Assembly: GCA_045632285.1 (NCBI GenBank)
Contig: JAZQWJ010000069.1
Location: 235-64,234, forward strand
Reading direction: 5' to 3'
DNA from: Eubacteriales bacterium
GTDB taxonomy: Bacteria > Bacillota > Clostridia > Oscillospirales > CAG-272
DNA length: 64,000 nt
Below are positions 2,152 to 60,727 of the stretch, in pieces. Under the pieces are notes generated by a model. It saw only the letters and a program-made list of their open reading frames with translations. It did no database searches and was not told the origin of the DNA. Each line of letters starts with the position of its first letter. Position 1 is the stretch's first letter. Both the position numbers and the translations under genes were made by a program.

Positions 2152-2157
2152 ACAAAA

Positions 2158-2202
2158 ACAGGCAATATCCCCCCAAACGGTGTGGGATATTGCCTGTTTT
2201 CT
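2158..2202. terminator. Rho-independent terminator between the SDR gene and the orphan spoIVB 3' fragment
   Basis: The 14-bp stem ACAGGCAATATCCC / GGGATATTGCCTGT is followed by TTTT. Confidence 0.75.
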
Positions 2203-2206
2203 GTCT

Positions 2207-2349
2207 TTACCCCGCCTGCGACAGGGGCGTTGCCATATTGGCAAGCATATTCTCTATAAATATCCCATATCCCGTGGTGGGATCGTTGATCATCACGTGG
2301 GTGACCGCACCGACCAGCTTGCCGTTTTGAATGATGGGGCTGCCGGACA
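2207..2349 (-). pseudogene. Orphan 3'-terminal fragment of spoIVB (last ~45 codons only)
   Basis: The minus-strand translation ..[46 protein letters not shown] nearly duplicates the C-terminus of the intact SpoIVB at 5448-6470. There is no upstream protease or PDZ coding. The residues upstream in track ORF 2207-2419 are unrelated. Confidence 0.85.
2230..2349. repeat. Direct repeat, copy A (120 bp), pairs with 5459-5578
   Basis: Aligned by eye, it starts TTGCCATATTGGCAAGCATATTCTC and ends ATGATGGGGCTGCCGGACA. I count 4 mismatches in 120 nt. Confidence 0.9.
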
Positions 2350-2485
2350 CGAGTGTGGTCAAGTAGGGACAACACATTTTTGCAATTTTTTGACTGTTTT
2401 GACACCATTTGTTAAGCAAATCGTCCCTTTATATCAATTTCAATAAGATGATATTTTTATGAAAAATTTGCTGTTGCGTATTATT

Positions 2486-3289
2486 TTATATATTGTTGGT
2501 CTTTTGCCTTTTGTATTGCAATGGTGACATGCCTGTTTCGTTTTTGAAAGTGCGTGAAAAAAATGAAATGCTGCTGAATCCGCAGCTTTCGCTGATTTCT
2601 GTGACCGACAGATCTGTTTTGCTAAGCAACTCTTTTGCCATGGTGATTCGCGTTTTCATTATATACTCCATAACGGTCAATCCGATTTTTTTCTTGAACA
2701 GTCTGCAAAAATGATATTTGCTCAGATAGCACGAGGCACAAATCTGATCAATTTTTAGTTCTTCTGTAATATGATGGTTGATGTATTCCACCGCCGTTTG
2801 GATGTTGTCGAAATTACAGGTGAGCTCATCCCCCATGCTCTGAGAGATCAGTACCGTCAAATCGAAAATTGCCGCATAGGACTTTGCTTGAAAATGATCT
2901 GTGTCGCTCCTTAGCTTATTAAGTTCTTCAAAAATATCTTCCGCACGGTGAAAATTGTGCTCGGAAAGCATCCCTATCACGATCCTATCCTCGCCAAGTA
3001 TAGGATATAATTTTCGGTTATGTGATAGAAGTCCGGAGATTTTTTCAAGCTCTTCTGAATCAACAAAGAGCTTACTTCTTGTGTATTGCTCGGGAATATC
3101 CGGGAATGTGTAATGGTATTTCCGATTTCCGATAAAACAGAGCAGCCCTTTTTCCATAGGATAACTTTTCTCTCTTGTAACAATGCTTCCGCTGCCGGAT
3201 TGGATCAACAGAAACATGTTATTTTCTGGCTCATGCCAGATTTTGTAATGCGCATCTCGCCCTACCTGTCGATATATTATCTCACTCAT
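2486..3289 (-). CDS. AraC-family transcriptional regulator
   Basis: The C-terminal double HTH (..YLSKYHFCRLFKKKIGLTVMEYIMKTRITMAKELL..TEISESCGFSSISFFSRTFKNETGMSPLQYKR) is typical of AraC/XylS, and the N-terminus is a cupin-like sensor. The gene is AT-rich compared with the flanks. Confidence 0.85.
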   Translation of the reverse strand: MSEIIYRQVGRDAHYKIWHEPENNMFLLIQSGSGSIVTREKSYPMEKGLLCFIGNRKYHYTFPDIPEQYTRSKLFVDSEELEKISGLLSHNRKLYPILGEDRIVIGMLSEHNFHRAEDIFEELNKLRSDTDHFQAKSYAAIFDLTVLISQSMGDELTCNFDNIQTAVEYINHHITEELKIDQICASCYLSKYHFCRLFKKKIGLTVMEYIMKTRITMAKELLSKTDLSVTEISESCGFSSISFFSRTFKNETGMSPLQYKRQKTNNI

Positions 3290-3424
3290 TGCCCAATCAC
3301 CTCATCGTCCATTATACCGCATTTTGCAGAAAAAAGCAATACAAGTCAAAAAACAGGCAAGAATAAACTTTTTTCACTCTGATTTTTGAGATATAATGAT
3401 GAAAACAAAGAAAGGAAGAAGAAA

Positions 3425-4306
3425 ATGAAAAACTTAAAAGGAATTTATACCGCGTTGCTAACCCCCTTTACAAAGGATGGTAAGATCAACGAAAAAGAGC
3501 TCGCAAAGCTTGTGCGCTATAATCTCGCACTCGGAGTAGACGGTTTTTACGTTTGCGGAAGCACGGCAGAGGCACTGATGCTGAACGTGGAAGAGCGAAT
3601 GGAGATCATGAGAATTGTCAAAGATAACGCAAAGGATGCAAATCTAATTGCACACATCGGAAGCTTGAACGAACGCGATGCGCACAAATTGGCGGCGTAT
3701 GCCCGTGAGTTATCCTACGATCTGATCTCCTCGGTTGCACCGTTTTATTATAAGTTTAGTTTTTCTGAGATCAAGGACTATTACGTTCGTCTTGCAGAAT
3801 CCTCGGGAATGAAAATGCTGGTTTACCACTTTCCTGCGTTTTCGGGTGTATCTATGGGGTCTGATGAAATATCTTCCTTCCTTGGTGACGATCGGTTTGC
3901 GGGAATTAAATTTACCTCAAACGATTTCTTTACGCTTGAGCGGTGCAAGAGTAAATTTCCCGACAAGCTTGTTTTCAACGGATACGACGAAATGATGCTT
4001 TCAGGACTTGCGATGGGGGCGGATGGCGGTATCGGAAGCACTTATAATTTTATGGCTGACAAATTTGTTTTGATAAGAAAGCTATTTGGGGAAGGAAAGA
4101 TTGAAGGGGCAAAACGCATACAAAACGAGGCAAACAGAATAATTACCGTTCTTTGCAAGATTGGTGTAATGCAAGCCGAAAAAGAGGTTATGAATCAGCT
4201 AGGTTTTGATTTTGGCGATTGCTTACCGCCGTTTTCAAAAATCAGCGAGGAACAAAAGGCATTGATTGCCGAGAAAATAATGCCTTTTATAAAAAACGGC
4301 ATTTGA
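3425..4306 (+). CDS. nanA: N-acetylneuraminate lyase (DHDPS/NanA family)
   Basis: The ATG at 3425 follows GAAAGGAAGAAG. Blocks match E. coli NanA as recalled: LLTPF, GSTAEA, APFYYKFSF, VYHFPAFSGV, catalytic-Lys context GIKFTSND, NGYDE, GADGGIGSTYN. The track start at 3386 is a TTG without an RBS. Confidence 0.85.
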   Translation: MKNLKGIYTALLTPFTKDGKINEKELAKLVRYNLALGVDGFYVCGSTAEALMLNVEERMEIMRIVKDNAKDANLIAHIGSLNERDAHKLAAYARELSYDLISSVAPFYYKFSFSEIKDYYVRLAESSGMKMLVYHFPAFSGVSMGSDEISSFLGDDRFAGIKFTSNDFFTLERCKSKFPDKLVFNGYDEMMLSGLAMGADGGIGSTYNFMADKFVLIRKLFGEGKIEGAKRIQNEANRIITVLCKIGVMQAEKEVMNQLGFDFGDCLPPFSKISEEQKALIAEKIMPFIKNGI

Positions 4307-4322
4307 CGGAGAGGCGTTGAAA

Positions 4323-5294
4323 ATGGTTGTAGAAAAGGCGATAGCGGATTATACAGACTTCAGGATTCCGGGGTTAGTCGTAACAGAGAGCGGTACGCTG
4401 CTTCGATATTGTGAATGCCGCCGTTCTCGGAGCGATTGGGCAGATATTGATATTAAGATCAGCAGAAGCACGGATAATGGAAAGACATGGGAAACGATTC
4501 TTTTGATAGAAAGCGGCGGTAATACGCTGAATAATCCCGTTATGTTTGTTAACGAAGAAAAGCTTGTTTTTCTTTATTGTAAAAACTATAAAGAGATATG
4601 GAAATGTGTAAGCACGGACGACGGTAAAACCTTTGGCGAAGCCAAGCGTGTGGATTTTGAGAACAGCGTTGACTTTTTTTACAACGTTGTAGCGGTGGGA
4701 CCGGGGCACGGAATTGTCCATAAAGGAAGACTTTTGGTGCCAATCTGGTTTGCATATAACAGGCAAGATGAAAAGGCGCATCGCCCGTCCTTTATTTCCA
4801 CGCTCTATTCCGATGACGGTGGCGATCATTTTCGCGTTGGCGAAATTATTTTTAGGGATATACTTAAAAATCCCAGCGAGTGCGCATTTGCTATCACCGC
4901 AGAAAATGAGGTCCTGATATCAATTCGTCATGAAGGCGAAATAAGAAAGCGCGGCTTGGCAAAAAGTGCTAACGGCATCTCTGCATGGAGAGAGCTTCAC
5001 TTTGAGGAAAATCTTTCTGATCCCATATGTATGGGAAGTATGACGCACCATAATGGCAGGATATATCACTCAAATTGCGATTCTGTTCAAGAAAGGATAA
5101 ATTTAACAGTTAAAATATCCGACGACTGTTTTAAGACAATTCACAACATATATGTTTCCGACTTCGGCGGATACTCGGATATAGCAGTATGGGATGACAA
5201 GCTCTTTATCCTTTATGAAAAGACCGTTTTAACAGAAAGTAAAGCAATTAAACCGTTTGAATTGTTTTTTGAAACCATAAATCTGCCAAGATGA
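4323..5294 (+). CDS. Exo-alpha-sialidase (GH33, BNR/Asp-box), no signal peptide
   Basis: It has the FRIPGL (RIP) motif near the N-terminus and Asp-boxes SRSTDNGKTW, STDDGKTF and YSDDGGDHF. The ATG at 4323 lies 8 nt after GGAGAGG. There is no N-terminal hydrophobic segment. Confidence 0.85.
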   Translation: MVVEKAIADYTDFRIPGLVVTESGTLLRYCECRRSRSDWADIDIKISRSTDNGKTWETILLIESGGNTLNNPVMFVNEEKLVFLYCKNYKEIWKCVSTDDGKTFGEAKRVDFENSVDFFYNVVAVGPGHGIVHKGRLLVPIWFAYNRQDEKAHRPSFISTLYSDDGGDHFRVGEIIFRDILKNPSECAFAITAENEVLISIRHEGEIRKRGLAKSANGISAWRELHFEENLSDPICMGSMTHHNGRIYHSNCDSVQERINLTVKISDDCFKTIHNIYVSDFGGYSDIAVWDDKLFILYEKTVLTESKAIKPFELFFETINLPR

Positions 5295-5447
5295 AAGGCA
5301 TCATCCAAGGAAGAGTAGTGTGTTATAATAGAGACAACACTTTTATGCAACGAATTTAATAATCTTCGGACAAAAACGATTGTCCCTTATTGAACTCACT
5401 CATAGTGAACGTTCCGTAAGGGACAACAGTTTTATTCATTTTTTGTG

Positions 5448-6470
5448 TTACGACGCCTTTGCCATATTGGCAAGCATATTCTCAATAAAGATACCATATC
5501 CCGTGGTGGGATCGTTGATCATCACGTGGGTGACCGCGCCGACCAGCTTGCCGTTTTGAATGATGGGGCTGCCGGACATGCCCTGCACGATGCCACCTGT
5601 TTTGGAAAGCAGTGCGGGATCGGTCACCTTTACGGTAAAGCATTTGTTGCCGTCGGCATTGCAACGGATGGCAGAAAGCTCCACCGCGTATTCCCGAGGA
5701 GCGCCGTCATCCAACGTACAGCGCAAGGTGGCGGTGCCGGATTGCACCTCGTTCCGATAGGCAATGGGTAGCGTGTCACCAAGGTAGCGCGGGCAGGCCG
5801 TAAAGCTGCCAAACACACCGCAAACGGTGTTTTGCGTTAAAACGCCGTTGCGTTCCGGCGAAAAATGACCGCGCAACTCGCCCGGTGCCCCTGCGGCGCC
5901 CTTGCGGACGTCGCTGATGCCAACACCCATCACGGTTCCGCGCGAAAGCGGGATCAGCGCGCCGCTTTCACCGTCACAAATGCCGTGCCCCAGCCCGCCA
6001 AAGGCAAGATCCTTGGTAACAAAGGTCACGGTGCCGATGCCGGCCCCCGCATCCCGTACAAATAACCCGGCGCGCAATCGGCCGTCCTCATCGCAGGGGA
6101 GTGGCGTCAGCGTGACCCTGCTCTCTTGCCCATCTCGCTTATAAAGCAGCGTGATGGGTTTTTTGCCGTTTTGAGCAATGACCTCTGACAGCTCGCCCGC
6201 GGTGTCGATCTGCCGACCGTTGACCGCGCAGATGCAGTCGCCGGGGCGCAGCCCCGCCTCTTTGGCGGGGTTGCGATCTTTGCCGTTGCATCGCACGTCA
6301 CAGTAGTTGACCACCAGCACGCCATCGGTGAGAAAGCGCACGCCAAAGGGTGTGCCGCCCACGGTGAGGGTGGGCCGATCCTCGGCCGCCGTTGGCAGGG
6401 CGGCCATGCAAATGAAAAGAAGCAATGTCAGCAAAAAGCCGCACCGTTTCAATGTTTTTTTGATTTTCAT
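5448..6470 (-). CDS. spoIVB: SpoIVB stage IV sporulation signalling serine peptidase (S55) with PDZ domain
   Basis: The start is MKIKKTLKRCGFLLTLLL.. (signal/anchor) at 6470, after a GGGGGA RBS. It has a PDZ-like segment (GLRPGDCICAVNGRQI) and the S55 peptidase C-terminal block [20 protein letters not shown]. The track start at 6539 lacks an RBS. Confidence 0.85.
   Translation of the reverse strand: MKIKKTLKRCGFLLTLLLFICMAALPTAAEDRPTLTVGGTPFGVRFLTDGVLVVNYCDVRCNGKDRNPAKEAGLRPGDCICAVNGRQIDTAGELSEVIAQNGKKPITLLYKRDGQESRVTLTPLPCDEDGRLRAGLFVRDAGAGIGTVTFVTKDLAFGGLGHGICDGESGALIPLSRGTVMGVGISDVRKGAAGAPGELRGHFSPERNGVLTQNTVCGVFGSFTACPRYLGDTLPIAYRNEVQSGTATLRCTLDDGAPREYAVELSAIRCNADGNKCFTVKVTDPALLSKTGGIVQGMSGSPIIQNGKLVGAVTHVMINDPTTGYGIFIENMLANMAKAS
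5459..5578. repeat. Direct repeat, copy B (120 bp), pairs with 2230-2349
   Basis: This copy forms the in-frame 3' end of the intact spoIVB. Confidence 0.9.
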
Positions 6471-16897: not shown

Positions 16898-17180
16898 AAG
16901 ACCATACACCTCCCAATCGAACGTCACCTTTGCGCGGATCTCGAGCCTTTCGCTCGGAGCAGGCTGCCTCGCGGCACATCAGGTTAACCGCTTAATGCTG
17001 CTTGGTTCCCCACCTGACATGGTTCACAGTGTCTGATTGCGCAAGACCCACTCTTCATCACGGAAGAACCCGCTCCGGACCGCATCGCTTCGGTCCTCAA
17101 GGGAGGGATCTACCCCTGCTATAGCGGATTTCAGGTGCAGGGCTCCGCTACTTCCCCGGCTGGTATGGCCTTATTTCACA
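16898..17180 (-). ncRNA. ffs: Signal recognition particle RNA, long Bacillus/Clostridium type with Alu domain
   Basis: The minus strand reads ..GCCGGGGAAGUAGCGGAGCCCUGCACCUGAAAUCCGCUAUAGCAGGGG.. (Alu domain). Further on it reads ..GAACCAUGUCAGGUGGGGAACCAAGCAGCAUUAAGCGG.. (domain IV/S-domain motif). This follows B. subtilis scRNA as I recall it. The gene sits at the conserved position upstream of dnaX. The ends are approximate, within about 10 nt. Confidence 0.85.
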
Positions 17181-41357: not shown

Positions 41358-42461
41358 ATGAAAAAAACAGCAGTTTTTCTGTGCCTTGTCCTATTGGCCT
41401 GCTTGCTTTGTGCCTGCGGCGGGCATACGCATACACTGACCTATTATGAGGCAGTTGCTCCCACCTGTGGCAAGGCGGGCAGCATCAGCCATTGGCATTG
41501 CGACGGCTGCGGCCAAAATTTTTCCGATCAGGCGGGCAGTATGCCGATCGCCGAGGCAGCTATGGCCGTGGCACCGACGGGCAAGCACGCGTTTAACGGC
41601 GTGGATGCTTGTATGCTTTGCGGCGAAAAAATGGAGGGGGAGCGTGGCGAGCCCTTTACGCTGAACAGCGATGGTGAATCCTATACCTTTTCGGGGGGCA
41701 TTCGGGCCGATCAGATCCTGATCCCCGAGACCTATAAGGGGAAGCCCGTGACTGCCATTGGCGCGGACGCCTTTCGACGTAACAGTGGATTGCGCCGCAT
41801 CGTGATCCCGAACAGCGTGACCGAGATCGGCGCGGGCGCCTTTGCAGATTGCAGCGGATTGCTTGAGATCACCTTGGGCGATGGCGTTCGTCGGATCGGT
41901 GAAAATGCCTTTTCGGGCTGCGCTATGCTTAAAAAGGTGCAGGTTTCGGACGTTTCGGTCTGGCTTGGTATCACCTTTGAAAACGCCGTTGCCAACCCCT
42001 TTAGCTATGCAAAGGAGCTTTACGTTAAGGGGGGACTGATGACGGACATCGTGGTGCCTGCCGGCGTGACCGAGATCAAGCCGTATGCCTTTTATAATAT
42101 GCCCTCGCTGATCTCGGTGCGATTGCCCGACAGTGTGAGCAAGATCGGTGATGCCGCTTTTTACGCTTGCAGCCGTATGGAGCGCTGCACCCTGTCAGAG
42201 GGGCTGCGTGAGATCGGCGCCGAGGCCTTTGACTTTTGCCGCAGCCTGAAAATGCTGACGTTGCCCCAAAGCCTTGTCAAGATCGGCGCGGGCGCCTTTG
42301 GACGCTGCACCTCGCTTGTTGACGTGACCTTTGCCAATACCGAGGGGTGGAGCTATAACGGCACCGCACTGATGCCCGCAGAGCTGGCGACCCCTGCCGT
42401 GGCCGCCTCTTATCTGACGGTCTCTCACATTTTGGAGCCGTGGCTTTGCGGCGAGGATTGA
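41358..42461 (+). CDS. BspA-like leucine-rich-repeat surface lipoprotein with N-terminal Cys/His module
   Basis: It has a lipobox LLCACGG. The N-terminal module is HTLTYYEAVAPTCGKAGSISHWHCDGCGQNFSD. It is followed by repeats of the type IPNSVTEIGAGAFADCSGL. Confidence 0.8.
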   Translation: MKKTAVFLCLVLLACLLCACGGHTHTLTYYEAVAPTCGKAGSISHWHCDGCGQNFSDQAGSMPIAEAAMAVAPTGKHAFNGVDACMLCGEKMEGERGEPFTLNSDGESYTFSGGIRADQILIPETYKGKPVTAIGADAFRRNSGLRRIVIPNSVTEIGAGAFADCSGLLEITLGDGVRRIGENAFSGCAMLKKVQVSDVSVWLGITFENAVANPFSYAKELYVKGGLMTDIVVPAGVTEIKPYAFYNMPSLISVRLPDSVSKIGDAAFYACSRMERCTLSEGLREIGAEAFDFCRSLKMLTLPQSLVKIGAGAFGRCTSLVDVTFANTEGWSYNGTALMPAELATPAVAASYLTVSHILEPWLCGED

Positions 42462-49692: not shown

Positions 49693-50106
49693 GATGTGGC
49701 ACCTCGCTTTCGGTGGGAAAATGTAATTTCTATCTATTATAGCATTGATCCCTCTGTTTTGCAAGGCGAAAATGCAAAAAATTCATAATTTTTACCAAAC
49801 AGGCAAAAAAATCTGCAAAAATACGCCGTTTTCAAAAAAAATTGACGGAATCTGTCGCTGTTTTGTCAATTTTACGGAGGAGGACGGGCGCCGAAACGAT
49901 GGATGTCAAGCTCCTTTATAAAAAGTTGTGCCGCGCGCTTGGTTTGGCAGAAATGCCATAATACAATATTTTAATTAGTATAAAATGACAAAAAATAAAA
50001 AAACAATTGTTTTTTCTTGTTCCTTGTGCTAAAATGGGAATACCACACGCGGGCGCGACCGCACGCGAGTCGTATTTGCGAACCAAAACAAAAAGGAGAA
50101 ACAGCT

Positions 50107-53100
50107 ATGAAACGAATTGTTGTATTGTTGCTTTGCCTGTGTATGCTGCTGCCCATGGTGTTTGCCATGACCGCAGTAAATGCGGGCGCCGAGGCCACGG
50201 TAACGGTTTCTACCGACAAGGAGGTCTACGCGCCCGGCGAGGCCATTAAGGTCACCGCACCTGCCGGCAATGAAAAGGACTGGGTGGGCATTGTGCCTGC
50301 CGATGCCAACGGCGATCCCATTATCTCGCAGGGCACGATCTATTGGAAATACGTCGGCGAGGGTCTGACTGCGTCCTCTTTGGTTGAGGGCGCTACCGCC
50401 ATCAACACCGCCAAGGGCGATGCCCTTGCCGCTTTGATGGGCATGACCAGAGCGGAGATGCTGACCCTGCCCGAAGGTCGCTATTTCGTGGCGCGTATTC
50501 CCAACGATCTCGGCATTCCCAAGGCCGACGAGCAGGGCTTGGTGACCTACGTGCCTATTACCATTGCATCCAAGATCACAATGGAAAAGACCACCTTTGC
50601 ATACGGTGAAGATATTCCGGTCATCCCTTTGGTCAAGAACACCGAAAAGGACTATATCGGTCTTTCCCGTGTGGACAATGACGGAAACGTTTGCCAGAAC
50701 TTGTACTATACCTACATTACCGATGCAATGGTAAATACGCCAATCAATATCAATGAGGGTGTACTGTACGGTTCAGATAAGGCAAACTACGGACATTTGC
50801 CCGCAGGCCGCTACGTGGTCTATTTTGCCCCCAACGATGCGGGTGCTCAAACCCGAGATAAAAGCTCTGATATTCACATTGAAATAAAGGGTTTGACGAC
50901 CGATAAAACCGATTACAAGGTCGGTGAGCCCATTATGGTTACTGCCAGCGGCGGTCTTAAGGACTGGGTCGGCATCGGCCTTTTGAATCACAGCAGCACG
51001 TATAAGCTGACCACGATCCGCTGGAGATACATTACGCACAATAGCGGCAACCCCGGCACCACGGGCTACGGCTCCGGTGAGACCTTTGACATTGCGCAGG
51101 CGCAGATCATCAATGATAATGTGCTGCCTTATGCAGATCTGCCCGCAGGCGAATACGTGATCTATCTGGTTGCCAACAACGGCTCGGCTGACAGTGCTTC
51201 CTCCGAGTCGACCTATATCTACATCACCGTCAGCGACGTTGCCCCCGATGCCCCCGCCTCGGCCACTCTGTCGCTGAACGACGCGCGCACCGGCCTTGCG
51301 GGTGGCAAACTGGCTGTAACCTTTGCGGAAGAGTCGATGGCGATGGGCAAAAAGCCCACCAAGCTGCAGCTGTATTGGGCTGACGAAAACGGTGACAAGA
51401 TCGTAAACAGCGATTTTGGCGCGTACGACGTGACCGGTGCCGTGACCGAGATCGCAATGCCCGATTGTATGCTCATCCCCGCCGAGGCCAAGTCCTTGAT
51501 GGTGCGTGCCTACAACGGCGCGGGCTATGCCGATGCGGCCGTTGCCGCCGCGCTGCCCGCCGATCGCGGCTACCGTGCGACCGGTGCCGAGATCGCTTCC
51601 TTCCAGATCGTCAGCGATATGCATATCGGCTACGCGGATTACAGCAGCGAGCACGCAATCGCTCTGTTCAACGATATTCTGGCGATCGATCCCGACAGCG
51701 TGGGTATCTTTGTGGCAGGTGATGCCGCCGATCACGGTCAGGCTGCCGAATACGAGGAGCTGTTTGCTCTGTGGCAGGCCTCGGGTCTTGACGCACAGCT
51801 CTATCTTGGCGTGGGCAACCACGAAATGATGAAGGATACCTCCGGCCACAATTATAACGACGATTATCAGGTTCAGATCGAGCGCTTTTTGACCTATGCA
51901 AACAAGAGTTTGACCGAGGCCGAGAAGACCGAAACCCCTTACTATTACGTCAACCGCGGCGGCCAGCACTTTATCTTCCTTGCCACCGAGGAATGCGGAA
52001 CCCACGCTTACCTCTCCGATGCGCAGCTTGACTGGCTGGAGGCAAAGCTTGGCGAGGTTGCTGCCGACGGCGCACCCGTGTTCATTATGCTCCATCAGGG
52101 TCTGTATAATTCTATTGCAGGCACGCTGGAGGGGCAGGGCTGGAACGGTATCATCTGCGGTGAGGAGAACTTTAACGCTTGGAAGGCACTTGCCGCCGAA
52201 AAGGGCGTGACCACCAGCAATCATACCTATATGAAGGGGCAGTACGAGCAGCCCCTGCGCGATATTCTTGCGCAGTATCCCTCCGCTATGATGTTCAGCG
52301 GCCACAGCCACTGGATCATGGAATCTCTTGGCAACGTCTACAATGCCACCGAGGCGCAGCCCAATTACCTGTTTAATACCGCATCGGTTTCTTATCTGTG
52401 GACCGATCGCGATGAAATGAACGGCGGCCAGGGCACCGATGAGGGCAGCCAGGGCTACTTTGTCACCGTTTATGAAAATTGCATCGAGGTCCGCGGCCGC
52501 GATATTTTGAACGGCGAGTGGATCAACGGCGCTTCCTATCAGATCTGGCTTGACTGCGCACACGAGTACGATTTCGCTTGTGCCACCGGCAGATGCGTCT
52601 GGTGCGGCGAGGCCGACCCCGAGGCTCCCGCCTGCGTTGGCGAAAACGAATGTTCTACCACCTGTGCCACCTGCCATCAGGAGACCGTTGTAGACGCCAA
52701 GCCCTGCACCGGCTCGGTGGAATGCTCTGACGTGTGCATCTACTGCGGTGAGAATACCGTTGCCGATGCCGTGGCATGCACGGGCGAGTTTGATTGCTCT
52801 ACCAAATGTATGTACTGCGGCGAGGCCGTAACGCCCCGCGTTGCCGAGCACAGCTTTGCCTACCTCTGCACCGCACTTTGCGATATCTGCGGTGAGGCCA
52901 ACCCCAACGTTGTGCCCTGCAGCGGCAAGTTTGATTGCTCTACCAAGTGCGAATACTGCGGCAAGGCCGTTACGCCCCGCGTTGAGACGCACACCTTTAC
53001 CTACGCTTGTGACGAGAATTGCAGCACCTGCGGCGAGGCAAACCCCGACGTTCAAGCGCACAAGGGTCTGTACGATTGCTCTGATAAGTGCCAATACTGC

Positions 53101-55029
53101 GGTATCGACGTTGAGCACGAGGCGCACGTTGGCGCCAATGGCTGCGAGGTCGTTTGCAAGTTTGGCTGCGGCACTGCCGTTTCGGGCACCGGCCACGAGA
53201 GGGAGTTTGATTGCTCTGTGGTCTGCAAGAACTGCGGCTCGGATATGACCGAGGGCGCCGCCGCTCACGAGGGTGTTGCTGCTTGTGCGACCGCTTGTAA
53301 GTACGGCTGCGGCACTGCCGTGACCCCCGATGCCGAGGCCGCTCATGCGGGCGAATTCGATTGCTCCGAGATCTGCGCCGCTTGTGGCGAGGCCATCGCG
53401 CAAAAGACCCCTCACGCAGGCGAATTTGCTTGCTCCGACAAGTGCGCAACCTGCGGCTGCGACATTCAGCCCGCCTCCGATCATATCGCAAGCGAGGTGC
53501 TTTGCTCCGGTCTTTGCACCCTGTGCAATACCGTTCAGTTCACCCCTGCCGCACACGAGGGCGCTGCCCCCTGTGCTACTGTTTGTAAGTACGGCTGCGA
53601 GACCGCCGTTGAGCCCACAGCTGAGCACGATGCACCCTTTGACTGCTCTGCGATCTGTACGGTCTGCAACGAGAGCATCGCGCACGCTGAGCACGAGGGC
53701 GTTGCCGCCTGCGCAACCGTTTGTAAGTACGGCTGCGGCACTGCTGTGACCGCTGCTGACGAGCATACCGCCGCGTTTGTATGTTCTGAGACCTGCGCCG
53801 TTTGTGAAGAGACGATCACGCCCGATGCCGCGCATAGCAAGGCGCATGCCTGCACCAACGCCTGCGACGTTTGCGGCGCTGAGATGGAGGCGACCGCAGC
53901 GCATACCGCGCTCTTTGCCTGCTCTACCGGTTGTGCTGTCTGTGGCGAGACCATTGAGCCTGCTGCAACGCACACCACCGTATACGAGTGCGATACCAAG
54001 TGCGCTGTTTGTAACGAGGACGTTGCGCACAAGGCACACGACGGCGAGTTTGCTTGCTCTACCGTATGTCAGTATGGATGCGGCACCGTGATCGAGGATG
54101 CCGTCCCCTGTGTGGGCGCTATCGCTTGCCGCGATGAGATCTGCCAATACTGCGGTGCTGAGGTCGAGGTCAAAAAGCATGAGGGTGCATACAGATGCTC
54201 TACCGTATGTCAATACGGATGCGGCATTGCCATCAAGCCCAAGATGGGCCACGTAAAGGTCAACGCTTGCTCTGACGTTTGCACGATCTGCGGCGAGACC
54301 ACAACGCGTTCCCGTCACACCTATGACAACACCTGTGACGTGGATTGTAACGAATGCGGCTTTATAAGAGAGGCCGCTCAGCACGTTTATGATAATTCCT
54401 GCGACGCCTCTTGTAATGTGTGCGGCGCTGCCCGCACCCCCGCTGCTCACGAATACGTCAGTGAATGCGCAGATCTTTGTCGCGTGTGCCACGCTGAGCG
54501 CGAGGCCTTTGGCGACCACAGCTACAACGGCGATTGCGACACCATCTGTGATGCCTGCGGAAAGGTCAAGGAGCAGGGCGAGCATAGCTTTGGTGACTGG
54601 ACCGTATTGGTTGAAGCCACGTTGGATGCGACCGGCTTGCGCGAGCACGCTTGTGTATATTGCGGCGAGGCCGAGAGCGAAGAGATTCCCAAGCTGACCG
54701 TGGATCCCAACGCACTGAACAGCGCACCCACAGTGAACCTTCCTGTTGTGGGCGAGGTTGATCAGAACACCTTTATTCTGGTGGTTGCCATTGCCGGCGG
54801 CGTGCTGCTGCTGATTGTGATTGCGATCATTGCAGGTGCTAAAAAGAAAAAGAATGCCAAGAAGGCCAAGAAGGCCGAAAAGGCTGAAGCTACCGAGGAA
54901 AAGGCTGAGGAGACCGAAGCCACCGAGGGAGAGGCTGAGGTGACCGAGGAGGAAACCGAGGAAAAGACCGAGGAAAAGACCGAGGAAGCCACCGAGGCCG
55001 ACGAAACCGAAAAGAAGGATGAGGAATAA
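50107..55029 (+). CDS. Giant membrane-anchored surface protein: three Ig-like modules, a calcineurin-like metallophosphoesterase, about 29 tandem Cys-rich modules, a TM helix and a K/E-rich tail
   Basis: The ATG at 50107 follows AAGGAG, and the protein has a Sec-type signal peptide. All five metallophosphoesterase motifs are present: SDMHIG, GDAADHG, GNHEM, MLHQG and SGHSHW (about 51590-52330). A TM helix lies at about 54770-54840, followed by a Lys/Glu/Thr-rich cytoplasmic tail. Confidence 0.9.
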   Translation: MKRIVVLLLCLCMLLPMVFAMTAVNAGAEATVTVSTDKEVYAPGEAIKVTAPAGNEKDWVGIVPADANGDPIISQGTIYWKYVGEGLTASSLVEGATAINTAKGDALAALMGMTRAEMLTLPEGRYFVARIPNDLGIPKADEQGLVTYVPITIASKITMEKTTFAYGEDIPVIPLVKNTEKDYIGLSRVDNDGNVCQNLYYTYITDAMVNTPININEGVLYGSDKANYGHLPAGRYVVYFAPNDAGAQTRDKSSDIHIEIKGLTTDKTDYKVGEPIMVTASGGLKDWVGIGLLNHSSTYKLTTIRWRYITHNSGNPGTTGYGSGETFDIAQAQIINDNVLPYADLPAGEYVIYLVANNGSADSASSESTYIYITVSDVAPDAPASATLSLNDARTGLAGGKLAVTFAEESMAMGKKPTKLQLYWADENGDKIVNSDFGAYDVTGAVTEIAMPDCMLIPAEAKSLMVRAYNGAGYADAAVAAALPADRGYRATGAEIASFQIVSDMHIGYADYSSEHAIALFNDILAIDPDSVGIFVAGDAADHGQAAEYEELFALWQASGLDAQLYLGVGNHEMMKDTSGHNYNDDYQVQIERFLTYANKSLTEAEKTETPYYYVNRGGQHFIFLATEECGTHAYLSDAQLDWLEAKLGEVAADGAPVFIMLHQGLYNSIAGTLEGQGWNGIICGEENFNAWKALAAEKGVTTSNHTYMKGQYEQPLRDILAQYPSAMMFSGHSHWIMESLGNVYNATEAQPNYLFNTASVSYLWTDRDEMNGGQGTDEGSQGYFVTVYENCIEVRGRDILNGEWINGASYQIWLDCAHEYDFACATGRCVWCGEADPEAPACVGENECSTTCATCHQETVVDAKPCTGSVECSDVCIYCGENTVADAVACTGEFDCSTKCMYCGEAVTPRVAEHSFAYLCTALCDICGEANPNVVPCSGKFDCSTKCEYCGKAVTPRVETHTFTYACDENCSTCGEANPDVQAHKGLYDCSDKCQYCGIDVEHEAHVGANGCEVVCKFGCGTAVSGTGHEREFDCSVVCKNCGSDMTEGAAAHEGVAACATACKYGCGTAVTPDAEAAHAGEFDCSEICAACGEAIAQKTPHAGEFACSDKCATCGCDIQPASDHIASEVLCSGLCTLCNTVQFTPAAHEGAAPCATVCKYGCETAVEPTAEHDAPFDCSAICTVCNESIAHAEHEGVAACATVCKYGCGTAVTAADEHTAAFVCSETCAVCEETITPDAAHSKAHACTNACDVCGAEMEATAAHTALFACSTGCAVCGETIEPAATHTTVYECDTKCAVCNEDVAHKAHDGEFACSTVCQYGCGTVIEDAVPCVGAIACRDEICQYCGAEVEVKKHEGAYRCSTVCQYGCGIAIKPKMGHVKVNACSDVCTICGETTTRSRHTYDNTCDVDCNECGFIREAAQHVYDNSCDASCNVCGAARTPAAHEYVSECADLCRVCHAEREAFGDHSYNGDCDTICDACGKVKEQGEHSFGDWTVLVEATLDATGLREHACVYCGEAESEEIPKLTVDPNALNSAPTVNLPVVGEVDQNTFILVVAIAGGVLLLIVIAIIAGAKKKKNAKKAKKAEKAEATEEKAEETEATEGEAEVTEEETEEKTEEKTEEATEADETEKKDEE
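52555..54665 (+). repeat. Coding tandem array of about 29 degenerate 22-26-aa His..C-x3-C-x2/3-C modules
   Basis: Examples are HSFAYLCTALCDICGE, HKGLYDCSDKCQYCGI, HEGVAACATACKYGCGT, HTYDNTCDVDCNECGF and HVYDNSCDASCNVCGA. The nucleotide copies are diverged, so this is not an assembly duplication. Confidence 0.85.
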
Positions 55030-55104: not shown

Positions 55105-58100
55105 TTAAAAATGACGCTTTTTGCGGAATAAGAGCACGATCACAAGCGCAATATTTCCAACAAGCAGGAGGCAGGAGAGCACGATAGCCACCGTGGCGGC
55201 GGTGGTGGCGCTTTCCAGTGCGGCGGTGTCTGCGGTGGCATCTTTGCCGTCCTTTCCGTCAATGCCGTTCAGACCGTTTAGACCGTCCTCGCCCTTTTTT
55301 CCGGGCAGACCGTTGGCGCCGTCCTTTCCGTTGGCGCCGTCCTTTCCGTCGGCGCCATCCTTGCCGTCGGCGCCGTTGTCACCCTTATCTCCCTTAGGGC
55401 CGGTGGCAGGAACGCCGCTGTCTGTGTTGTCAATAAACCAATTTCCGTTGGGGCCAATGGAAAGCGTTGCGTCAATGGTGCCCGCGGCGCCGTCACGCCC
55501 CTCGGCACGCACACCGGTGGGGGTGCCGTTGATCACCCAATAGCCCTCGCGGATCTCAACCGTGGGGGCCTCGCTTTTCAGCGAGCCCCGCAGAGTCCAA
55601 TCGCTTTCAAAGCAATAGACGTTACCGCTGTCAAGATCCAGATACAGCGCGCCGTCCTCGGCTGTTGCCGTGGGAGCGCCGCTGCCCAAATGCCAGCGGT
55701 TGGCGGCAAGGGGTGGCACATAGCTCTCGTCGACCGTAACGGTGAACAGCTCGGTGCATTTGGTATACATCGTGCCGGAATGCGTAAAGAAAGAAGCGGA
55801 GAGCAGGCACTTGGCAGAGCCCGTGCCGCTTGTCGTCAGCACGCCGTTGTCATAAGAGCAGGAGAGCGTGCCGCTTTGCTCCACCACGGTCAGCGTGGCG
55901 CGGGCGGGGTGCGTGACGCCGCCGTTATAGGCGATGGCCGAGAGAGAAAGCGGAATATCCCGCAGAACGGTATTAGAAATGTAGGTGTTTTGGTCGGTGC
56001 GCAGGTCCTTGATATAATCGGATACCCAGGCGGTATAGTCGGTGGTAAAGGCGTGGGAGCCATAGCGGAAGAGCTTGTCAAAATCCGTGCGGTTGTTGAT
56101 GGTCCAGGGCAGGATCAGCACGCCGCGATGGTTGGCGGCCTCGATGAGATTGGGGCCGATGCTTGCGTAACTCGGGTTGTAGGTCGAGTTATATTGCTGC
56201 ACGGTGGCAAGGATCTCGGCAACGGCGCGCTCGGGATCGGCCTCGGCGCTTGCATAGTTCATAGAAAGCGAGCCCAGCCAGCCTACCGAAAGCGCGGGGC
56301 AGATCTCCTTGAATTTCAGCAGGATGCTTGTGTTAAAGGAGATCAGATTGACCTGATCGCGCATACCGTACTCGTCGATGATATTTACGATATGTTGGCA
56401 AATGGCGGTGTCGCCATCCTTGATCTCAATGAGCAATCGCACGTTCTTGCCCTTCAGGGCCTCGCAGTACTCCCGCAGCGTGGGGATGGGCTTGGGGGCA
56501 ACGCCTGCGTTGTCGTTGACAACGTATTGGCAAAGCTCGGCATAGGTGAAGTCCTTAACCCGTCCCGCACCGTTGGTGGTGCCGTCGATGGTGGCGTCGT
56601 GCATACCCACCACCACGTTATCCTTGGTGAGATAGAAGTCGGCCTCGATCAGGGTGGCACCCAGCTCCACGGCAAGCAGCGCGCTTTCCACCGTGTTCTC
56701 CTGGGCATAGATGGGCGTGCCGCGGTGACCGATGATGCCTGGGGCACGGATCAGGGTGGTGGGCATAAAATAATCGGTATAGCAGGCGGCCAGGGCGGCA
56801 GGGTCGCTTGTGACGATGCCGTTGGCGCCCGTCAGCGTGGCACCGACCAGCGCGGCGTCAGAGCTGTCGGCACTCTCGACCCACACCGAGATCAGCAGAT
56901 CGTGCATAGCCGCCACGGTGTCGCGGGTGGCATAGTCGGCAGAGAGCAGACCCACGCGAGAGCCGCTTTGGTTGATCTCAGCGCAAAGCGCGGCGGGGGC
57001 GGTGGCGGTGAGATCGCGGTCACGCAGATCCAGCACGCCGCGGCACATTGTCGCAAAATTCCGCACACGTTGTATCAAATTTGCGTCCTTTGCCATCACA
57101 AAGGCATCCACAAGGCCGCCATCTCTCAGCCATTGGCCGAGGGCGTCTGCGGCAGCGGAGCCCTCTATATAAAAGGCGGGGATGACCCTGTGCTCCAGTA
57201 ATCGCATGGCGTTTTCAAGCGAGCAGAGCACCGTGCCTGCGGGGTCGGTCACGTTCAGCTCGCTGTTCACGCGCAGGATGGCCGTGGCGGGCAGGGCGTC
57301 ACTTGCGGTGAGTGCGGTGAGCTCGGCGGCGCTCTCGATGGGCTTGATGATCGAGGGAGCCACCACCACGTCGGAGTTGGGGTCAATGATCTCCGCCGCG
57401 TCGCCGTCGGCGGGGATCACCACGCGATAGCTTTCTACCGAGATTTCGCTGGCGCGGACCTGCAGGCCGAGGCGGCCGCGGTCATACTCGGGCATATAGA
57501 CGTTGGTGGCCACGGCGGTGCCGTCAATGATCGAGGTCACATAGTCTCCAAAGGCCTCCACGGTAAAATCGTGGTAGGTGGGGGTATTGGTGCCGTCGTT
57601 AATGGCCTTCGAGTAGGCTGCTGTATGCACCACCTCCCAGGTGTCATCGGCATTGCGCTCGGCCACCTCGGTGCCGCTGCCCGCGGTGGTCATGGCGCGG
57701 AAGGTGTTTTGGTAGTAGGGATAGTCGTCATTTTGCACGCGGTACATAAATCCCATCCAATGGGTGTTGGCGATGCGGGCGGTCATGGCGGCATTTGCCT
57801 CGATGCGGTAGTCGCCAAAATCACCCAGCCACGCGGGGAACAGCAGGCGGATATAGCAATCCTTGTGTGCGTGACCCGAAAGCACCAGCTTGCCGTCGGT
57901 TACTGCGATCTCGGCCGAGGCGGCCTTCTCAGCGACCGTATAGCCTTTGTTCAGCAGCTCGTCAAAGGAGGACACGTCCTCAAAATCCTCCTCAAACAGC
58001 ACATATTCGGTGTCGGCGGGGTCCTTGACCAGCAGGTAGACGGTCTTGGCCTTGCCGCCCGCCGTGGCAGTCAGGTGGTAAACGCCCTTTGTCGTCGGGG

Positions 58101-58356
58101 TGACCTTGCCGCCCGATACGGTGATCTCGTCCGACGTCCAGACGATGTCGTCGGCGGCAAGAATGCTGCCGTCGTCGGCGGTGACACTGTAAAACGACAG
58201 GTCAACGGTCTCGCCCGCGTCGGCCTTGACGGCAGGAAAACCCAGCGACAGGGTCACGGGCAGCACGGGCACCGTAGCCGCCGCCCCGACGGGAAATGCG
58301 GCAAGCAGGGGCACCAACAGACAAACGGTCAAAAGCAGAGCGAAAAATCGTTTCAT
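55105..58356 (-). CDS. Membrane-anchored surface protein: Ig-like domain, ConA/LamG-like domain, glycerophosphodiester phosphodiesterase (GDPD), collagen-like stalk and TM helix
   Basis: It has the signal peptide MKRFFALLLTVCLLVPLLAAFPVGAAA. The GDPD signature is IIGHRGTPIYAQENTVESALLAVELGATLIEADFYLTKDNVVVGMHD..IPTL..LLIEIKD (about 55990-56760). It ends with 18 G-X-Y triplets and a C-terminal TM followed by RKKRHF. Confidence 0.85.
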   Translation of the reverse strand: MKRFFALLLTVCLLVPLLAAFPVGAAATVPVLPVTLSLGFPAVKADAGETVDLSFYSVTADDGSILAADDIVWTSDEITVSGGKVTPTTKGVYHLTATAGGKAKTVYLLVKDPADTEYVLFEEDFEDVSSFDELLNKGYTVAEKAASAEIAVTDGKLVLSGHAHKDCYIRLLFPAWLGDFGDYRIEANAAMTARIANTHWMGFMYRVQNDDYPYYQNTFRAMTTAGSGTEVAERNADDTWEVVHTAAYSKAINDGTNTPTYHDFTVEAFGDYVTSIIDGTAVATNVYMPEYDRGRLGLQVRASEISVESYRVVIPADGDAAEIIDPNSDVVVAPSIIKPIESAAELTALTASDALPATAILRVNSELNVTDPAGTVLCSLENAMRLLEHRVIPAFYIEGSAAADALGQWLRDGGLVDAFVMAKDANLIQRVRNFATMCRGVLDLRDRDLTATAPAALCAEINQSGSRVGLLSADYATRDTVAAMHDLLISVWVESADSSDAALVGATLTGANGIVTSDPAALAACYTDYFMPTTLIRAPGIIGHRGTPIYAQENTVESALLAVELGATLIEADFYLTKDNVVVGMHDATIDGTTNGAGRVKDFTYAELCQYVVNDNAGVAPKPIPTLREYCEALKGKNVRLLIEIKDGDTAICQHIVNIIDEYGMRDQVNLISFNTSILLKFKEICPALSVGWLGSLSMNYASAEADPERAVAEILATVQQYNSTYNPSYASIGPNLIEAANHRGVLILPWTINNRTDFDKLFRYGSHAFTTDYTAWVSDYIKDLRTDQNTYISNTVLRDIPLSLSAIAYNGGVTHPARATLTVVEQSGTLSCSYDNGVLTTSGTGSAKCLLSASFFTHSGTMYTKCTELFTVTVDESYVPPLAANRWHLGSGAPTATAEDGALYLDLDSGNVYCFESDWTLRGSLKSEAPTVEIREGYWVINGTPTGVRAEGRDGAAGTIDATLSIGPNGNWFIDNTDSGVPATGPKGDKGDNGADGKDGADGKDGANGKDGANGLPGKKGEDGLNGLNGIDGKDGKDATADTAALESATTAATVAIVLSCLLLVGNIALVIVLLFRKKRHF
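55240..55401 (-). repeat. Collagen-like G-X-Y triplet repeat (18 uninterrupted triplets)
   Basis: GPKGDKGDNGADGKDGADGKDGANGKDGANGLPGKKGEDGLNGLNGIDGKDGKD lies 19 residues before the predicted C-terminal TM helix. Confidence 0.9.
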
Positions 58357-58498
58357 AATGACCTCCTTAAGGGGTGGAGTGCCTACATTATAACACGCTT
58401 TTATGCAAATTGCAACATTTGGGGGTTTACAATGAAGAAATTTTGTGCTAAAATAAAGATAAGAGGCTTATATTTTGAATAAGGAAAGGAGACTGAAC

Positions 58499-60727
58499 AT
58501 GAACAAAAGAAGATTTGGAATTTTATTGGTACTGCTGCTGTGCTTGCTGAGCCTGCCTCTCCTGATCGCCTGCGGCGAAGAACCCGAGCCACCCGTGGGG
58601 GAACAGACGTGTACGCACAGTCTGACCCATCATGAGGCCGTTGCGGCCACCTGCGGCGGCGAGGGTAACACCGAATATTGGTCTTGCGACCAATGCGGCA
58701 AATACTTTTCCGACGCCGCGGGAAGCACCGAGATTACCGATAAGGATTCGGTGCGGGTGGATCGGTTAAAGCATCTTCTTTCGCGTCATCAAAAGGTGGA
58801 GGCCACCTGCGGTAATGCGGGAAACATAGAGCATTTTTCTTGTGTGGCTTGCGGAGAGCTCTTTTTTGATTCCGAGGCTATGCTTGAAATTGCCGACACT
58901 GTCTCCGTGATCCTACCTCAAGCCGCGCATCCATTTGTGCTGGAATACAACGAGACCACACACTGGGGAAGCTATGCTTGCGAACACGGGCTTTCCGCCA
59001 CGGAAGAAACGCCCCACACCCTTGACGATCAACTGTGCTGTACCGGTTGCGGATTTCAGACCGGAACTCCGGGCATGGAATACAAACTAAACAGCAACGG
59101 CGAGAGCTACACGCTCGTTTACGCAGGCGCGGCATTTGCATCTGCCAACGTGATCGTCCCCAGTTTTTACAATGGGAAGCCTGTAACAGCCATCTCCGGC
59201 ATGGCCTTTTCCGAAGCGCTGAGCTCTGTTCGCATCCCCGACACGGTTACGTTGATCCAAAGCAACACGTTTCGCCAATGCCGCAACCTGACCGCCGTCA
59301 CCATACCCGCAAGCGTTCAGAGAATCTCAACAGCTGCATTTGAAGAATGCACCGCCTTGACCGCCGTACACATCACTGACCCGGAGGCATGGTGCAAGAT
59401 CCTATTTGAAAACGCTGCCGCCAATCCACTCAATGGGGGCGCTACGCTGTATCTGAATGGCGAGCCCGTCACTGCATTTACCGTACCAAGCACCATATCC
59501 GCCATCGGGGACTATGCGTTTTACAACTGTGACTCCTTGCAAACGATCAAATTGCCTTTGAGCGTGGAAACCATTGGAAATGGTGCGTTTGGCGCTTGCT
59601 CCGCACTGGTGGAAGCGGACATTCCGCCCACAGTCACAAGCATTGGCGAGCAAGCCTTTATGGATTGCTACGCTTTGAAAGAAACCGTCATTCCTTCTTG
59701 CGTATCCGTTATGGGAGAGGGGGCCTTCCGTTCTTGTATCAGACTGGAACAGGTGACTTTTGGAAAAAGAAGCTGCTTGGTTACTCTGCCGAAAGAAGCC
59801 TTTTACGGTTGCTATTCGTTGAAAAGCGTAATCTTTGAAGAGGGCAGTGTTTTGGAGGACGTAGGTGAATCTGCGTTTTTTGAATGCGACAGCATGACCA
59901 TCGTCTCCTTCTCCTCTGCTTTGAAAACGATCAAGCGGCAGGCGTTCCAAAACTGCGAAGAGCTGACCGCGCTGATCACGTTGCCGGGCGAACTTCGTAT
60001 CTTTGAGAACGCGTTTCCGCATTGCGAAAAACTGATCCAACGGGAAAACGGTGCGGAATACGTCAACCAGTGGTTAATCGGCTACGATGCCAATGCCACC
60101 ACCGTGGTACTGCGAGATAACACGACCATCATTGCGGATCAGGCCCTTAAAAACTGCAACGCCTATATCAACGGCACGCTTCCCGCAAGCTTGATCTACG
60201 TGGGTGCGTTGGCCTTTGAATCCTGCACAAAACTGCAATCCTTAACCATCTCATCGAGTCTTGCGGTAATTGGAGAATCTGCCTTTAGACGTTGCTTCAA
60301 TCTCAAAAGCGTTGAGCTACCCGCAACACTTACCGAGATCAAAAAAAATACGTTTGCCCAATGCTCGGCACTGGAAACCGTAACGATCGCGCCCGATAGC
60401 CGTTTGGAGGTGATCCATACAGAGGCTTTCCTGAATTGCAGCAAACTGACCTCTGTTACGATCCCTGTGAGCGTGAAAAAGATCACTTCCGATGCCTTTG
60501 AGTCATGTACCGGATTGACCTCCGTTTACTATGGAGGTGTCGCTCGAAATTGGGGTGAAATAGACGGAACAGAATACAATTACTCCGGACCCATCATCTT
60601 TACAAACTACTACATAGTGCATGCGACCCGCTACTATTATTCCGAATCGGAGCCAACCTCGGCCGGAAATTATTGGCACTACGACGTGGACGGCAGCGTT
60701 GCCGTGTGGCCTGCGGTCACGGAATAA
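58499..60727 (+). CDS. BspA-like leucine-rich-repeat surface lipoprotein with duplicated N-terminal Cys/His modules
   Basis: The ATG at 58499 lies 7 nt after AAAGGAG. It has a lipobox LLIACGE. Two modules are of the type H..HEAVAATCGGEGNTEYWSCDQCGKYFSD, followed by many repeats of the type IP.SV..IG..AF..C..L. Confidence 0.85.
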   Translation: MNKRRFGILLVLLLCLLSLPLLIACGEEPEPPVGEQTCTHSLTHHEAVAATCGGEGNTEYWSCDQCGKYFSDAAGSTEITDKDSVRVDRLKHLLSRHQKVEATCGNAGNIEHFSCVACGELFFDSEAMLEIADTVSVILPQAAHPFVLEYNETTHWGSYACEHGLSATEETPHTLDDQLCCTGCGFQTGTPGMEYKLNSNGESYTLVYAGAAFASANVIVPSFYNGKPVTAISGMAFSEALSSVRIPDTVTLIQSNTFRQCRNLTAVTIPASVQRISTAAFEECTALTAVHITDPEAWCKILFENAAANPLNGGATLYLNGEPVTAFTVPSTISAIGDYAFYNCDSLQTIKLPLSVETIGNGAFGACSALVEADIPPTVTSIGEQAFMDCYALKETVIPSCVSVMGEGAFRSCIRLEQVTFGKRSCLVTLPKEAFYGCYSLKSVIFEEGSVLEDVGESAFFECDSMTIVSFSSALKTIKRQAFQNCEELTALITLPGELRIFENAFPHCEKLIQRENGAEYVNQWLIGYDANATTVVLRDNTTIIADQALKNCNAYINGTLPASLIYVGALAFESCTKLQSLTISSSLAVIGESAFRRCFNLKSVELPATLTEIKKNTFAQCSALETVTIAPDSRLEVIHTEAFLNCSKLTSVTIPVSVKKITSDAFESCTGLTSVYYGGVARNWGEIDGTEYNYSGPIIFTNYYIVHATRYYYSESEPTSAGNYWHYDVDGSVAVWPAVTE

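Follow-up and report, generated by a model that had tools for sequence, protein, structure and literature searches.

The window analysed here, a 64-kb stretch of DNA from a Eubacteriales bacterium, encodes on its plus strand a surface protein in which a metallophosphoesterase head is joined to a membrane anchor by 29 tandem His/Cys modules. We propose that this array is a rigid, length-tunable stalk whose modules are each stapled by zinc, a reading to which we assign, in its full form, a probability of about 0.55. That the module defines a real, conserved, extracytoplasmic mini-domain family is a conclusion in which we have much higher confidence.

The array occupies residues 817–1492 of the protein (52555–54582, plus strand) and consists of contiguous head-to-tail modules of the form [H/C]-x5(6)-C-x3(4)-C-x2(3)-C with a period of 22–26 residues. 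Twenty-seven carry the canonical C-x3-C-x2/3-C motif, and two carry a C-x4-C-x2-C variant (first cysteine, Cys1, at 825 and 1341). This count agrees with the original prediction, made from the DNA letters and their translations, of about 29 His/Cys3 modules of this length with some 90 cysteines: there are 94 Cys in 674 residues (817–1490), and all three strings that it quoted as examples are found in the protein. It had also placed a His upstream in nearly every module. A His is present at this position in 24 of the 29 (once at −7 relative to Cys1 and otherwise at −6), but the substitution of Cys for His in the other five (residues 843, 867, 891, 938 and 1335) had been overlooked; no third type of residue occurs. 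With His or Cys at the fourth position in all 29 modules, the predicted four potential ligands per module hold good, amounting to ~116 potential metal ligands within the array. The Cys2-x2-Cys3 pair is followed by Gly in 22 of the 29, variation in module length is confined to the segment between Cys3 and the next His, and neither C-x-C nor CC runs occur. Shuffling the residues of the array 2000 times yields a mean of 2.15 full motifs and a maximum of 12, compared with the 29 in the real protein. Position 52555 is the codon of Cys817, and position 54665 falls beyond the array proper, in the last C-x2-C-G (residues 1516–1520). In two modules His replaces the Gly after Cys3 to give C-x2-C-H, the attachment spacing of haem c (residues 853–857, 52663–52677, and residues 1458–1462, 54478–54492; both plus strand), and an orthologue, P0002, has similar C-x2-C-H strings.

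At the DNA level, the module copies are 60–85% identical to one another, and Tandem Repeats Finder detects a single two-module duplication (141 nt, 77%). Because the copies are diverged and only this one old duplication is detectable, the array is ancient and under selection, as the original prediction had argued. The same divergence rules out recent slippage as the origin of the array.

The module extends well beyond this protein. An exhaustive HMMER search of 1.84 billion cluster representatives, using a profile built from 28 overlapping double modules, gave 1,363 matching proteins at E ≤ 1e-3, of which 693 reach E ≤ 1e-10 and 194 reach E ≤ 1e-30; clustered at 50% identity, the family counts no fewer than 1,363 clusters. 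A survey of this kind had been proposed for the Clostridia in the original prediction; its outcome is that the module is not peculiar to the window protein. Family statistics were taken from the best 148 other proteins, which are 400–5,500 residues long and carry 6–45 modules each (median 13) at a period of 21–24 residues (mode 22). A signal-peptide-like N terminus is present in 122 of the 148 and a twin-Arg-like motif in one. The residue six before Cys1 is His in 1,976 and Cys in 19 of ~2,080 motifs, the knuckle ends in Gly in 70% of modules, and the net charge is ~−2.5 per module. The consensus of the 22-residue module is HxYDNxCDxxCNxCGxxR, and its non-ligand residues (Y3, D4, N5, D8, N12 and R18) are found in the window protein only in the last four modules, which are of this family-canonical type (residues 1404–1492, 54316–54582, plus strand). 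The remaining 25 modules diverge from it, in the flavours HxGxFxCSxxCxxCG and HEGxAACATVCKYGCG, while keeping the four ligand positions and, for the most part, the Gly after Cys3; the non-ligand positions of the window protein vary freely from module to module.

Back-translated and searched in one genome per species, the canonical motif matched at least 120 loci. Those listed lie nearly all in metagenome-assembled genomes from gut, cecum or rumen, assigned to Acutalibacteraceae, Oscillospiraceae, Christensenellaceae and other Clostridia, with a few Bacilli, one Coriobacteriaceae and one Roseburia among them. In the databases, 20 family members are named only 'hypothetical protein' or 'metallophosphoesterase'. 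Partner domains in the 53 members scanned are the surface domains BspA-type leucine-rich repeats (LRRs), cohesin, dockerin, SLH and fn3, together with SH3_3, nucleotidase and phosphoesterase. A word-indexed homology search with a 154-residue piece of the array (54250–54711, plus strand) returned 5 candidates and no match, and word-based pre-filters may miss this repeat family.

The original prediction did not recognise the module as a described domain, and the collections searched do not contain it. The array has no match in Pfam-A (2025) or NCBIfam (2026), as is the case for the 53 family members, and no significant match among PDB sequences, whether searched as a single sequence or as a profile. 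Foldseek comparison of two AlphaFold models with PDB and BFVD likewise gave no significant match, and a full-text literature search returned no description of the repeat. The marginal, non-significant matches are all to mononuclear-metal fingers (zinc ribbons, LIM, RBR, C2H2 and rubredoxin). The best sequence match is the Gfi-1 C2H2 finger (E 0.012), and the profile searched against PDB gives rubredoxin (E 0.2) and L24e (E 1.3); RPA12 and phage 'zinc ribbon' proteins also appear, and the marginal fold matches have E values of 0.26–7. These matches point to resemblance to mononuclear-metal fingers, not to membership.

Particular families were also compared with the module. Neither the protein nor the 53 family members have a Pfam match to rubredoxin, to Fer4, to the Giardia variant-specific surface proteins (VSPs, PF03302) or to other catalogued Cys-rich surface repeats. 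Each module contains one C-x2-C-G, its other pair being H-x5-C, rather than the two knuckles of rubredoxins and zinc ribbons, and its spacing is unlike the C-x2-C-x2-C-x3-C-P of 4Fe-4S ferredoxins. The original prediction had drawn an analogy between C-x3-C-x2-C and the [4Fe-4S] sites of radical S-adenosylmethionine (SAM) enzymes. This analogy is not supported beyond the spacing, which is the sole feature in common: there is no Pfam match to PF04055, and a radical-SAM enzyme has one motif per ~250-residue cytoplasmic barrel with SAM-binding motifs, whereas the window protein is exported through Sec and has 29 extracellular motifs of 22 residues. Radical-SAM sites also need open iron, whereas each array module has a conserved fourth ligand, His or Cys.

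Ligand registers were compared by anchor-based counting across 245 arrays. Where Cys1 is lost, the His of the same module is also lost in 116 of 216 cases (54%), compared with 18 of 1837 (1%) where Cys1 is kept, while coupling to the next His is weak (24 of 216, 11%, versus 71 of 1837, 4%). At the ends of the arrays, His and Cys1 precede the first knuckle in 159 of the 245, whereas H-x5/6-C follows the last knuckle in 20 and no His whatsoever follows it in 90. Because of this co-loss, the array-end counts and the location of the length variation, the His and the three cysteines of one module group together. Two other registers, one combining Cys1–3 with the following His and one combining the knuckle with the His and Cys1 of the next module, are ruled out by the co-loss and the array-end counts.

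Several features of the array suggest that this group of four residues holds a metal. Exchange between His and Cys is what metal ligands typically show and disulfides do not, and the replacement of His by Cys is the strongest argument that the sequence offers for a metal ligand. The C-x2-C-G knuckle is a feature of mononuclear metal sites. Only 18% of the residues in the array are hydrophobic while 14% are Cys, and the net charge is ~−65, which leaves the array unable to form a normal hydrophobic core. Taken together, the interchange, the Gly-ended knuckle, the odd number of cysteines and the scarcity of hydrophobic residues fit a metal-stapled mini-domain, whereas disulfides account for none of them.

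An AlphaFold check had been proposed with the original prediction, and six modules (residues 1054–1196) were modelled with AlphaFold2 in metal-free form. The model has a predicted local distance difference test score (pLDDT) of 95.3 and a predicted template modelling score (pTM) of 0.69, with no helices and with single-residue bridges only, located at positions 3, 10–11 and 17–18 of each module. In this model each module takes the form of a very small three-stranded knuckle, its C-x2-C-G turn lying between the second and third strands. In a second model, of the last four modules and the terminal module that follows them, the array modules have pLDDT 69–88 and the same 10/17 bridge, and the knuckle turn lies between two bridged residues in both models. 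The terminal module is predicted at pLDDT 90–96 as a three-stranded sheet (strands at model residues 96–99, 107–113 and 119–124).

The architecture of the protein places the array between an enzyme and a membrane anchor. The gene (50107–55029, plus strand; 1640 residues and stop codon) lies within an open reading frame (ORF) spanning 50017–55029; its likeliest start is the ATG at 50107, with GGAG 8–9 nt upstream, and it is supported by orthologues. P0001, from an NCBI metagenome assembly, is the identical protein on record. An antisense ORF of 1291 residues (50773–54648, minus strand) was rejected as a gene on the evidence from the plus strand, whose protein has orthologues and matches known domains; we take the antisense frame to result from the GC-rich codon usage of the gene opposite. 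The N terminus, which is kept in orthologues, is a Sec-type signal peptide (residues 1–28, MKRIVVLLLCLCMLLPMVFAMTAVNAGA, followed by EA; 50107–50190, plus strand) composed of MKR, a hydrophobic core and A-G-A before the E. It contains no lipobox, and no twin-Arg for Tat export, MKR alone forming the n-region. Next comes a region of ~470 residues (50191–51606, plus strand) made of three beta-rich repeats of ~150 residues with the motif DW(V/I)GI, which has no Pfam or NCBIfam match above cut-off and is common to the orthologues and P0020.

The head that follows (51607–52554, plus strand) is a calcineurin-like metallophosphoesterase, in agreement with the surface phosphoesterase originally predicted upstream of the array. 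It was missed when the whole protein was scanned against Pfam and detected after scanning by segment; the segment scanned alone matches Metallophos (PF00149) at 37 bits (cut-off 21.5, E 6.2e-9), the match covering 51607–52311. All five catalytic motifs are present as SDMH, GDAADHG, GNHE, H664 and GHSH (D-x-H, GD-x2-D, GNH[DE], H and GH-x-H, at residues 503, 538, 570, 661 and 732). A search of PDB sequences with the head gave no relative at E ≤ 0.01.

Downstream of the array, alignment and the second model define a terminal module of another type, ~38 residues long (residues 1493–1530, 54583–54696, plus strand), with the motif H-x-F-G-x-W ... C-x2-C-G ... E-E-I-P. The same type also precedes the transmembrane (TM) anchor of unrelated lipase-like proteins (P0026–P0028). 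Its middle Cys has been lost; longer His/Cys modules elsewhere (for example in P0030) have a Cys at the matching site. A Pro/Val-rich linker of 25 residues (54697–54771, plus strand) leads to a single TM helix identified from hydropathy and sequence (residues 1556–1578, FILVVAIAGGVLLLIVIAIIAGA; 54772–54840, plus strand), and the cytoplasmic tail (54841–55026, plus strand) consists of KKKKNAKKAKK and a Glu/Thr/Lys-rich low-complexity stretch. Given the signal peptide and the positive-inside tail, all of the protein that precedes the TM helix lies outside the cell. The extracytoplasmic location given to the array in the original prediction is upheld by the Sec signal peptide without twin-Arg, the downstream helix and the Lys-rich tail.

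We infer metal binding by the modules, and the identity of the metal, from the sequence and the predicted models. We know of no extracytoplasmic pathway for Fe-S assembly, which, together with export through Sec and the mononuclear-type knuckle, favours zinc; Fe2+ is a possible occupant of the same site. Of the structures that the original prediction had considered, a Zn-knuckle rigid stalk is the one that the evidence favours. The array would then be a chain of 29 independently folded knuckle domains of ~23 residues, each stapled by one metal ion, most likely Zn2+, on its own His (or Cys) and three Cys. The protein would be exported unfolded via Sec, its modules folding outside the cell upon metal binding, where the anoxic, reducing gut lumen would let the thiolates survive. 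The folded modules together may form an acidic, protease-resistant and fairly stiff rod that spans the wall and keeps the phosphoesterase head distant from its membrane anchor. As a rough estimate, 29 modules at an assumed 1.2–1.8 nm each would give a stalk of 35–50 nm, which would be longer than a Gram-positive wall is thick.

The reach of such a rod would depend on how many modules it contains, and the orthologues have 39, 22, 22, 18, 16, 11, 8 or 0. The P0002 locus is syntenic with the window and shares the order of the ABC-2 transporter, citrate-synthase and adjacent unnamed genes. Orthologues with 0 modules keep the enzyme, have another C-terminal domain and lack the TM anchor. Among the 35 family members that have a C-terminal TM helix, the array ends <120 residues before it in 30; further members end in dockerins or wall-binding repeats. 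We infer a spacer function from this arrangement, from the surface domains that partner the module and from the collagen-like stalk of the neighbouring GDPD protein; the rigidity, like the length, is an estimate.

A number of points weigh against the zinc-stapled stalk. The spacer role is argued from architecture only, and ~5% of family modules have lost Cys1 and keep His, Cys2 and Cys3, so that four ligands are not strictly required and Cys1 is the most dispensable. The canonical module is rich in conserved Asp/Asn (D4, N5, D8 and N12) that are mostly missing from the window protein and could reflect some other role, for example the binding of Ca2+. Zn(Cys)3His sites outside the cell would be sensitive to oxygen; we know of no precedent for such sites as a bacterial stalk, nor did the literature search return one. 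The AlphaFold models are metal-free, which leaves the proposed ligand geometry hypothetical. The alignment behind the pLDDT of 95 consists of overlapping windows of only 8 proteins, some rows repeating the target, and is shallower than its 53 rows suggest because MAFFT staggered the overlapping six-module windows; the second model, with 8 independent rows, gives only 69–88 for the modules.

The alternative that survives best, although we consider it unlikely, is a metal-free repeat based on disulfides or thiols, with staples within or between modules and the His in a structural role. It had been raised in the original prediction, and eukaryotic Cys-rich extracellular repeats (EGF, TSP3 and furin-like) are indeed stapled by disulfides. 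The five Cys-type modules, which hold four Cys, could make two disulfides each, but most modules have an odd number, three, and no preference for even numbers is seen in the family. In ~5% of modules Cys1 is lost alone with its would-be partner kept, and a His that is ~95% conserved and replaced by Cys only would be left unexplained. The hosts are strict gut anaerobes, and exported proteins of anaerobic Gram-positives lack the even-Cys bias indicative of disulfides (PMC2823432). Exported Firmicutes proteins generally avoid Cys, with ~0.5 Cys per exported protein in aerobic species (PMC2823432), which makes a 94-Cys ectodomain unusual for the phylum. Such a Cys-rich ectodomain is restricted to strict anaerobes, where thiolates can persist.

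The array could also act by binding, either retaining the protein on a wall polymer or adhering to a host or dietary ligand, which we judge improbable. Choline-binding repeats of ~20 residues retain proteins in the wall, and the tandem period of 21–24 residues resembles that of wall-binding repeats; the partners of the family include adhesin-type LRRs, and canonical modules have conserved surface residues (Y3, D4, N5, D8, N12 and R18). Wall-binding modules are usually basic, however, whereas the array is strongly acidic, as are the modules of the family, and the free variation of non-ligand positions better fits a scaffold. A simple scan finds no anchor in 85 of the 148 family members, as binding would predict, yet many of these have dockerins, wall-binding repeats or a weak TM helix at their end, and the window protein is already TM-anchored.

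A surface metal sponge is a distinctly poor candidate. Compatible with all the evidence for metal binding, it would buffer, store or capture zinc, or detoxify Cu/Cd, in the manner of a metallothionein, at ~29 ions per molecule, and it would account for the many potential ligands of a protein in the gut, a zinc-limited and contested niche. The regular modules, predicted to be well ordered, and their discrete four-ligand sites speak for structural sites rather than labile clusters, and an array of 14% Cys has none of the C-x-C or CC runs of metallothioneins. The array always links a functional head to an anchor, some orthologues with zero copies still keep the enzyme, and no metal transporter gene is found among the nine neighbouring ORFs scanned.

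Finally, a chain of redox centres carrying electrons outward from the membrane, whether through rubredoxin-like Fe(Cys)3His, [4Fe-4S] clusters on C-x3-C-x2-C or haem on the two C-x2-C-H motifs (for which P0002 has matching strings), seems very far-fetched: radical-SAM spacing, the His(Cys)3-ligated [4Fe-4S] cluster of hydrogenases, a site density (one per ~23 residues) near that of 2×[4Fe-4S] ferredoxins and the weak rubredoxin profile match speak for it, but the signal is Sec and not Tat, Pfam gives no match to Fer4, radical SAM or rubredoxin, the knuckle is of mononuclear type, the arrays are attached to hydrolases, LRRs, cohesins and dockerins and to no redox enzyme, some orthologues manage without the array, and the nine ORFs include no cytochrome-c maturation or electron-transfer gene. 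Were it nevertheless so, 29 Fe(Cys)3His or Fe-S centres 1–2 nm apart would make a non-haem electron wire through the wall, a protein analogue of multihaem cytochrome nanowires that would be present in >1000 surface proteins.

The zinc-stapled stalk that we favour combines features of several known systems. Like the zinc knuckles and ribbons of L24e, RPA12/TFIIS, LIM and RBR, the module has a C-x2-C-G turn flanked by a two-residue beta bridge and four His/Cys ligands in <20 residues with no hydrophobic core. The second pair in those proteins is a C-x2-C knuckle, whereas the array module has H-x5-C, and no match to them is significant. Classical zinc ribbons are also found in the cytoplasm or nucleus, one or two at a time, whereas these modules of 22–26 residues are exported through Sec in up to 45 copies. 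Metallothioneins are likewise small and Cys-rich and fold in a metal-dependent manner without a hydrophobic core. They are ~30% Cys with C-x-C/C-C runs, bind multinuclear clusters in the cytoplasm and have no fixed secondary structure or long arrays, unlike the exported array, with its 14% Cys, discrete four-ligand sites and predicted beta bridges.

Gram-positive stalks (collagen-like, Rib, SHIRT and the G5-E repeats of SasG/Aap) similarly place repeats in variable copy number between anchor and head. They owe their stability to a triple helix or to beta-sandwich cores, with essentially no Cys and no such metal binding, and a Rib or G5 domain is 3–4 times the size of the array module. The nearest known functional analogy may be the CXXC-rich surface proteins of Giardia, a microaerophile of the gut lumen, a setting like that of the gut anaerobes. 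VSPs likewise have a signal peptide, a Cys-rich ectodomain with regular CXXC motifs and a C-terminal TM anchor. Their motifs, CxxCxxxCxxC and CxxCHxxCxxC, have no fixed 22-residue period and no sequence relationship to the array, and their role is antigenic coat variation, whereas the array links an enzyme to its anchor. Zinc binding, although substoichiometric, has been reported for VSPs, some of which have tandem repeats (PMC2996952), and protease resistance has been reported as well (PMC6341118).

Other surface proteins are encoded in the same window. The convergent neighbour of the gene (55105–58356, minus strand) has a signal peptide, a GDPD phosphodiesterase domain (PF03009, E 2.5e-32), collagen-like Gly-X-Y repeats (PF01391, E 1.1e-8) and a C-terminal TM helix. 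These domains make it the second surface phosphodiesterase anchored in the membrane, with a stalk of another kind in the equivalent place. In two BspA-type LRR lipoproteins (58475–60727 and 41358–42461, both plus strand), the stretch separating the LRR domain from the lipobox Cys contains one to three longer His/Cys3 modules, H ... C-x10/11-C-x2-C-G; these look like a related type that likewise sits beside the anchor. At the P0002 locus (L121, 13961–21553, plus strand), the next gene encodes >3,152 residues with a cohesin domain and faint EGF-like matches and may be another giant built with Cys modules. Elsewhere in the window, a large-type bacterial signal recognition particle RNA (RF01854, 161 bits; 16902–17168, minus strand) is present, as expected for Bacillota, and a search of the 64 kb gave no tRNA genes. 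The GC content is 0.43–0.46 at 2001–6000, compared with 0.51–0.60 elsewhere in the window.

Metal-stapled mini-domains and tandem-repeat stalks are both known already; what is new is their combination in an exported bacterial 22-residue His-Cys3 module that occurs in arrays of up to 45 copies. If zinc binding is true, this would be, to our knowledge, the first large bacterial family of extracellular zinc-finger-like domains. It would mean that strict anaerobes, unable to rely on disulfides, build small, stiff, protease-resistant extracellular modules with metal-thiolate staples instead of cystines. Surface display would then be sensitive to oxygen and to zinc withholding by the host, and the arrays could sequester noticeable zinc at the cell surface. 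A self-folding rod unit of 22 residues may also find use in protein engineering. The members of the family are very large surface proteins of gut and rumen Clostridia, among them LRR adhesins, cellulosome-type cohesin and dockerin proteins and nucleotidases. Since the family is invisible to Pfam, NCBIfam and PDB, its definition would improve the annotation of many giant 'hypothetical' proteins of the microbiome.

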